Shown here piece after piece: positions 22,582-22,712 of a stretch of 64,000 bases of DNA. The notes under the pieces are model-generated. The model had not been told where the DNA came from. It saw only the letters and a list, made by a program, of their open reading frames with translations, and ran no database searches. The stretch's first letter is position 1; each line of letters starts with the position of its first letter. Origin of the DNA: Escherichia coli (lineage in GTDB: Bacteria > Pseudomonadota > Gammaproteobacteria > Enterobacterales > Enterobacteriaceae); NCBI RefSeq assembly GCF_003334765.1, contig NZ_QOWT01000001.1; one strand, given 5' to 3'. The position numbers and the translations under genes were made by a program.

Positions 22582-22605
22582 AAAAATTAATAATAATTGA
22601 TATAA

Positions 22606-22628
22606 CAATGATTCTTATTATCAATATT
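22606..22628 (-). promoter_or_regulatory. Fur-box-like AT-rich inverted element upstream of ydiE
   Basis: aatgattcttattatcaat resembles GATAATGATAATCATTATC; HemP-family genes are commonly Fur-regulated. Confidence 0.35.
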
Positions 22629-22669
22629 ATGGCTGACCAGAGCAAGCAGTAATTTGTTGAGAAGACAAC

Positions 22670-22706
22670 AAGTTGCGCAGAAATGCCCATTCCGTCAGGA
22701 ATGGGC
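22670..22706 (-). terminator. Hairpin downstream of aroH
   Basis: gcccattcc-gtca-ggaatgggc stem; moderately U-rich 3' flank on minus strand. Confidence 0.45.
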
Positions 22707-22712
22707 ACGCAT

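Follow-up and report, generated by a model that had tools for sequence, protein, structure and literature searches.

A Fur-repressed promoter and an A/U-rich leader without an SD sequence upstream of ydiE, the HemP-family gene of Escherichia coli

We analysed a stretch of Escherichia coli K-12 DNA of 64,000 nucleotides (hereafter the window) in which the small gene ydiE is preceded by aroH and converged upon by selO. The genes, and the gap to which most of the analysis refers, are laid out as follows:

22713-23759, minus strand: aroH coding sequence, upstream of ydiE
22582-22712, minus strand: aroH-ydiE spacer, the entire 131-bp gap from the aroH stop to the ydiE/hemP ATG
22390-22581, minus strand: ydiE/hemP (b1705) coding sequence, 63 aa, with its ATG at 22581-22579
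20950-22386, plus strand: selO (ydiU), converging on ydiE

The ydiE locus, taken as a 501-nt query, is 100% identical to that of MG1655 and is found in 5,423 of 5,426 complete E. coli genomes. A preliminary description of this DNA had taken the 63-aa reading frame for a member of the HemP family, and this assignment is borne out by comparison with protein families and structures. Residues 27-63 of YdiE, its C-terminal 37 residues, match the Pfam family hemP (PF10636) with an E value of 3.1e-15, and the protein scores 136.2 bits against the NCBIfam equivalog PRK10183, for which the cut-off is 77. The PDB entry 4YNX is YdiE itself ('Uncharacterized protein YdiE') and 2LOJ is a Salmonella relative. 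A HemP profile, run against enterobacterial assemblies with one genome per species, gave the 80 loci (78 of them distinct) on which our comparisons rest, and the alignment of the HemP orthologues has 20 columns that are invariant across genera. The invariant columns, taken together with the two structures, indicate that the YdiE protein is under selection and folds.

Two further observations concern the surroundings of the gene. The stop codons of ydiE and selO are 3 bp apart (22384-22392) and the genes are convergent, which leaves no space for separate terminators; ydiE-selO has been named among the overlapping ('excludon') pairs defined by RNA-seq (PMC12288877). Comparison of the window with NZ_CP032667.1, a sequence labelled 'MG1655', revealed in the latter a 1-nt deletion that frameshifts rpmI (~12195-12392), a gene that is intact in the window, and a 9-nt length difference near sufE/ldtE (~52900-53480).

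Within the spacer we could place the following elements, listed in the direction of ydiE transcription:

22684-22707, minus strand: aroH terminator-like hairpin, a perfect 10-bp stem TGCCCATTCC/GGAATGGGCA with a 4-nt loop, then UUUCUGC
22640-22645, minus strand: sigma-70 -35 hexamer TTGCTC, with 17 bp between it and GATAAT and a fitting distance to the transcription start
22604-22628, minus strand: Fur operator, two overlapping 19-bp boxes that cover the -10 hexamer and +1
22617-22622, minus strand: -10 hexamer GATAAT, within the Fur box, 5/6 against TATAAT, ending 8 nt before the transcription start
22609, minus strand: transcription start, an A, from a published map, giving a 28-nt 5'UTR
22582-22609, minus strand: 5' leader of 28 nt, AUUGUUAUAUCAAUUAUUAUUAAUUUUU, with 26 of its 28 nucleotides A/U, one G and no SD

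The hairpin that follows aroH has a stem that is 100% complementary and an RNA fold of -21.9 kcal/mol (z -3.87), a stability reached by none of 200 shuffles, and Escherichia and some Citrobacter share it. Its tail reads just UUUCU, and it is because this T-run is short that a scan for consensus terminators gave no call. The hairpin would separate the ydiE transcript from aroH and insulate it. Between the hairpin and the ydiE -35 hexamer there is also a 9-nt imperfect inverted repeat at 22651-22674 (AATTTGTTG/CAACAAGTT, 89% complementary), which may be a chance match.

We scored each position of the whole 64-kb window, on both strands, against the 19-bp Fur consensus GATAATGATAATCATTATC, with the sufA Fur box (47743-47767) serving as positive control. 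On the minus strand, the segment 22622-22604 (GATAATAAGAATCATTGTT) agrees with the consensus at 15 of 19 positions, and a second segment shifted by 6 nt (22628-22610) agrees at 14 of 19; an overlapping pair of this sort is the usual arrangement. The 7-1-7 core TGATAAT-A-AGAATCA at 22623-22609 matches at 12 of 14. Only four positions in the window reach at least 15/19, and two of these belong to the sufA control, which scored 16/19 and 15/19. When the sequence was shuffled with its dinucleotides preserved, matches of at least 15/19 arose with P = 0.0026 for the spacer and P = 0.009 for its 86% A+T core, so that AT-richness alone does not account for the match. As a self-complementary dyad the E. 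coli site is mediocre; other genera have the near-perfect TGATAATGATTATCA. A Fur site scoring 14-18/19 is present in every one of the 78 distinct orthologous loci, most other genera standing at 16-18/19, and the Fur box is the best-conserved block of the region, with a mean of 1.39 bits per position. On the strength of the two box scores and the shuffles, the AT-rich dyad resembling a Fur box that had been proposed at 22606-22628 is real, and its interval was correct to within 2 nt.

The same scan returned, among its higher scores, a Fur-like pair of 14/19 and 13/19 upstream of ydhY (57459-57483); the sufA and ydhY sites are other Fur-regulon promoters of this 64-kb window. There is also a 14/19 Fur-like site at 20189-20207, within the first ydiV codons, and a second published Fur ChIP-exo peak, P54 (NC_000913.2 1790124-1790154, window ~20064-20094), lies just upstream of the ydiV start (PMC10164565).

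Published in vivo data place Fur on the ydiE operator. Under iron-replete conditions a Fur ChIP-exo peak assigned to ydiE spans NC_000913.2 1787605-1787617, which corresponds to 22613-22601 of the window (PMC10164565). In the same work, ChIP-exo combined with Δfur RNA-seq put ydiE in the core Fur regulon of nine E. coli strains: the log2 fold change of Δfur over wild type is +2.87 in MG1655 (p 1.9e-14, ~7-fold) and +8.14 in W3110, with comparable values in the other strains but one, and ydiE is up in eight of the nine strains (PMC10164565). The remaining strain is BL21, where ydiE falls in Δfur (log2 -1.10), the sole core Fur-regulon gene to do so (PMC10164565). In Salmonella, deletion of fur raises ydiE 7.4-fold, and a Fur site had been assigned in earlier work both to ydiE and to Yersinia hemP, in each case upstream of the gene (PMC3212961). 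The iron-dependent expression that had been proposed for ydiE on the basis of its Fur-box-like element is thus confirmed by the ChIP-exo peak and the Δfur data, and it was already known; indeed, the literature and regulon data sets already cover the control of ydiE by Fur as well as the Fur site and the transcription start.

The transcription start can be fixed by two routes. Upstream of the orthologous genes (~38 aligned genera), the alignment shows a near-invariant CTTGC, then a variable 17-bp stretch, then a near-invariant TTGATAATGATTATCATTGTTA, with GATAAT invariant; averaged per position, the -35 hexamer carries 0.88 bits of information, the stretch between the hexamers 0.27 and the Fur box 1.39. 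This conserved arrangement, -35 TTGC(T/C)N, 17 bp and -10 GATAAT, predicts a start ~28-30 nt before the ATG. The prediction was made before the published start was looked up, and it agrees with 22609: the second supplementary file of Kim et al. (2012, PLoS Genet) records for b1705 a start at NC_000913 1787609, supported by 184 reads and giving a 5'UTR of 28 nt, and it lists no other ydiE start. The promoter string given there, ending ...GATAATAAGAATCA, maps uniquely to 22659-22609 of the window. A generic promoter scan called no ydiE promoter on the minus strand, because the -35 hexamer TTGCTC falls below its threshold, and the Cappable-seq supplements and the ROSE in-vitro transcription supplement contain no ydiE entry. 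For an RpoD SELEX peak in the aroH-ydiE spacer, Shimada et al. (2014) gave another hexamer pair, TTGATA-16-TATCAA. We rejected this pair, and likewise a TATTAT -10 near the ATG, as the main promoter: both are unconserved across genera and disagree with the mapped start. The promoter, its start point, its occupancy by Fur and the Fur dependence of its expression are demonstrated by published data.

The preliminary description had noted that no recognisable SD precedes the ydiE ATG, and this observation is confirmed. For 60 annotated genes of the window, we computed the best pairing of the 22 nt upstream of the start codon with the 16S 3' end ACCUCCUUA; at +1.9 kcal/mol, the anti-SD duplex of ydiE is the weakest of the 60, for which the median is -6.3 kcal/mol. 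The 20 nt before the ydiE ATG contain no G and are 95% A/T. When every candidate ATG in the 78 distinct orthologous loci was treated in the same way, the energies ranged from +2.8 to -3.2 kcal/mol, and none of these ATGs has a real SD. Nor is the initiation region predicted to fold to any real extent: the leader plus 42 nt of coding sequence has an MFE of -4.3 kcal/mol (z +1.53), with 191 of 200 shuffles at least as stable, and among 58 initiation regions of the window that of ydiE is the third least structured. A search of Rfam over 22200-22900, at E values up to 1, gave no match and hence no known leader, riboswitch or sRNA.

From the missing SD it had been suggested that initiation may be leaderless or otherwise non-canonical, and only the latter part of this suggestion stands. 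The ydiE mRNA is leadered, because the mapped start at 22609 coincides with the one predicted from the conserved promoter; its 5' end reads AUUG... and lies 28 nt before the AUG, so the leaderless option falls. SD-independent initiation, in turn, is favoured by the sequence and its conservation. Transcription does begin upstream of the gene, yet the leader that results carries no SD, and expression depends on Fur. Where the SD is weak or absent, AU-rich stretches are bound by ribosomal protein S1 and act as enhancers, and leadered mRNAs devoid of an SD are common (PMC4611024). Judging from its composition and conservation, ydiE probably initiates independently of an SD on its A/U-rich leader, with assistance from S1; SD-independent initiation of this type is known and common. 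Literature searches found no papers on ydiE in a leaderless context, and none with ribosome-profiling, fusion or proteomic mention of ydiE.

Several other accounts of the dyad, the transcript and the start codon have to be set against this reading. That the dyad arose by coincidence in AT-rich DNA and is devoid of Fur function might be argued from the 86% A+T of the spacer core and from the imperfect palindrome of the E. coli copy, but the shuffles (P of 0.003-0.009) and the near invariance of the site in 78 species speak against it, and with the published ChIP-exo peak and Δfur expression data it is already refuted; we give it essentially no credence. Were a leaderless or near-leaderless mRNA to arise from a second promoter in the A/T tract, the lack of an SD would not matter. 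Several -10-like hexamers do lie within 20 nt of the ATG, and two candidates can be named: the TTGATA-16-TATCAA pair that Shimada et al. assigned to their RpoD SELEX peak, with a start near 22590, and a TATTAT -10 at 22595-22590, with a start near 22583. The mapping was moreover done without full Fur derepression, so a secondary start is possible. However, the mapped start at 22609 (184 reads, 28-nt UTR) is the sole ydiE entry; the alternative -10 elements read CATTGA and TGTTAT in other genera, without the essential A2 and T6, whereas CTTGC-17-GATAAT is conserved; and the generic promoter scan called none of the candidates on the minus strand. A transcript of this kind is, in our judgement, very unlikely. 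Still less probable is a mis-annotated start, in which UUG at 22608-22606, +2 of the mRNA, would direct near-leaderless synthesis of a 72-aa protein. The frame is open to TTG 22608, and the start at 22609 puts the UUG one nucleotide from the 5' end. The added residues, MLYQLLLIF, are nevertheless cut off in E. whittamii and most other genera, where the frame contains a stop, for which reason we rejected the 72-aa form, and leaderless initiation needs a 5' AUG for which GUG, UUG and CUG are no substitute (PMC4611024). The ATG at 22581-22579 is the sole ATG, GTG or TTG between the in-frame TTG 22608 and the conserved domain, and orthologue lengths fall mainly within 54-66 aa, the ATG being codon 1 or codon 4. 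These two ATGs, three codons apart ('M-S-R-M-D'), alternate across genera, at least one being always present: only the first is found in Escherichia (where codon 4 of E. coli is ACG), Lelliottia, several Enterobacter and Phytobacter/Kosakonia, and only the second in S. arizonae, C. amalonaticus, C. braakii, Kluyvera georgiana, Pseudocitrobacter and others. This pattern across genera supports the annotated E. coli ATG.

The conservation of the leader itself admits more than one reason. Positions +7 to +20 carry 1.07 bits per position and the last 8 nt carry 0.66, so that conservation over the first ~20 nt comes close to that of the Fur box; this could reflect contacts of Fur or H-NS at the DNA level or, equally, capture of the ribosome. 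It is conceivable, though we think it the less probable course, that the A/U leader is mainly a DNA element, a downstream extension of the Fur/H-NS array, and that the missing SD is a by-product which keeps HemP translation low with no dedicated enhancer. Besides the near-equal conservation of +7 to +20 and the Fur box (1.07 against 1.39 bits), this account can draw on the hexamer-like ATTGTT/ATTATT repeats of which the leader consists and which Citrobacter sp. JGM124 (L047) has in expanded form, on inverted repeats that pair 22583-22596 with the Fur box arm at 22615-22628, on the H-NS site that Shimada et al. (2014) list in the aroH-ydiE spacer, and on the normal GGAG SD of the downstream hemR in Enterobacter (Enterobacter mori). 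Against it, the leader holds no second strong Fur box, 19-mers downstream of 22604 scoring just 10-12/19, and the ChIP-exo peak is narrow (22601-22613). It is compatible with SD-independent initiation on a Fur-controlled transcript and differs only in the reason given for leader conservation and in the efficiency of translation. More speculative, and to our minds rather unlikely, is the proposal that selection keeps the SD-less A/U leader as a dual-use element, at once an operator arm for Fur and H-NS in the DNA and an initiation region in the RNA that responds to S1, Hfq or an sRNA. The ground offered for it is that the leader is conserved in ~78 enterobacterial species though the start codon moves between two ATGs; if true, such a leader would add a post-transcriptional, condition-specific gate on HemP synthesis on top of Fur control.

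The gene order of the orthologous loci bears on the origin of this arrangement. An aroH gene lies upstream of hemP in 78 of the 80 enterobacterial loci. Downstream, 39 of the 80 have a convergent selO, as K-12 does, and 41 have a co-directional TonB-dependent heme/hemoglobin receptor gene, located 70-190 nt after hemP (loci L017-L081; for example L040, 2766-4751, with 582 bits to TIGR01785, cut-off 317). With the receptor downstream in 41 of 80 species, the same Fur promoter and leader stand, in about half of the genera, before a hemP-hemR heme-uptake operon. No heme receptor or uptake genes follow ydiE in K-12, its next gene being the convergent selO; from the gene order it looks like the leading gene of an ancestral hemP-hemR operon, orphaned but with the operon's promoter retained. 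Sequence comparison across these loci shows that promoter and operator are conserved, that no orthologue has an SD, and that many of the genera use the same regulatory region for hemP-hemR. Relatives in the HemP/HmuP family are small heme-binding regulators of heme-receptor expression; in Burkholderia and Bradyrhizobium their action is transcriptional, in Ensifer and Chromobacterium post-transcriptional (PMC9131926; PMC5827684).

Two records met in this survey (L005/L025) bear labels at odds with their content. One, a contig of 417 bp attributed to Streptomyces sp. NTH33, shows 100% identity to E. coli ydiE; the other, attributed to Chryseobacterium sp. 18061, bears an aroH-hemP-hemR locus of enterobacterial (Citrobacter-like) type. 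Contamination or mislabelling of public assemblies is the likely cause in both cases.

As a whole, the locus is very probably explained by a Fur-repressed sigma-70 promoter that yields a leadered ydiE mRNA with an SD-less, A/U-rich leader and SD-independent initiation. Read along the minus strand, the spacer presents the aroH hairpin, then the sigma-70 promoter, then the Fur operator over the -10 element and +1, and then the template of the 28-nt leader. In the presence of iron, Fe2+-Fur is bound at 22604-22628 and keeps RNA polymerase out; when iron or Fur is absent, a monocistronic ydiE transcript begins at A22609. We infer that its AUG at 22581 is translated without SD pairing. Most likely, the 30S subunit would be captured by the unstructured A/U-rich leader, a tract of the S1-binding type, and the sole accessible AUG would then be selected.

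The discovery value of this account is small, since the regulation by Fur, the operator and the start are already documented. Its value is in part corrective: ydiE is not leaderless, and its annotated ATG is supported. It also offers ydiE as a clean, conserved natural case of a leadered mRNA that lacks an SD, and so as a possible test case for S1-assisted initiation. Minor new points are the alternation of the start codon and the hemP-receptor operon of 41 of the 80 species, which makes K-12 ydiE an orphan; an origin as the first gene of a hemP-hemR operon gives a rationale for the presence of ydiE, a gene of 'unknown function', in the core Fur regulon.

In its promoter, ydiE resembles the classical Fur-repressed promoters of E. 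coli, namely sufA and the class of fepA/fes, fhuA and tonB: the Fur box lies over the sigma-70 -10 and +1, Fur is bound under iron-replete conditions and ydiE is derepressed in Δfur. Nothing essential sets it apart from them, the E. coli ydiE box being slightly degenerate (15/19). In its leader, ydiE resembles the SD-less leadered mRNAs, with their S1 enhancers, and the genes marked by 'local absence of structure', in that its leader, 93% A/U, should be single-stranded around the AUG according to the fold prediction; it differs from that class in that the SD-less state is kept across the whole orthologue family, a conservation for which we found no counterpart in the literature searched. With leaderless mRNAs such as lambda cI it shares the lack of an SD, but the ydiE transcript carries a 28-nt leader and does not begin with AUG. 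The hemPRSTUV, hmuPRSTUV and chuPRSTUV operons of Yersinia, Burkholderia and Chromobacterium share with ydiE a PF10636 protein and a Fur-controlled promoter directly upstream, and the aroH-linked hemP genes of 41 of the 80 enterobacterial loci, like those operons, precede a heme receptor. In contrast, E. coli K-12, Salmonella, C. koseri and Raoultella have no receptor or transport genes after hemP, and K-12 ydiE is monocistronic, with a 3-bp gap to the convergent selO.
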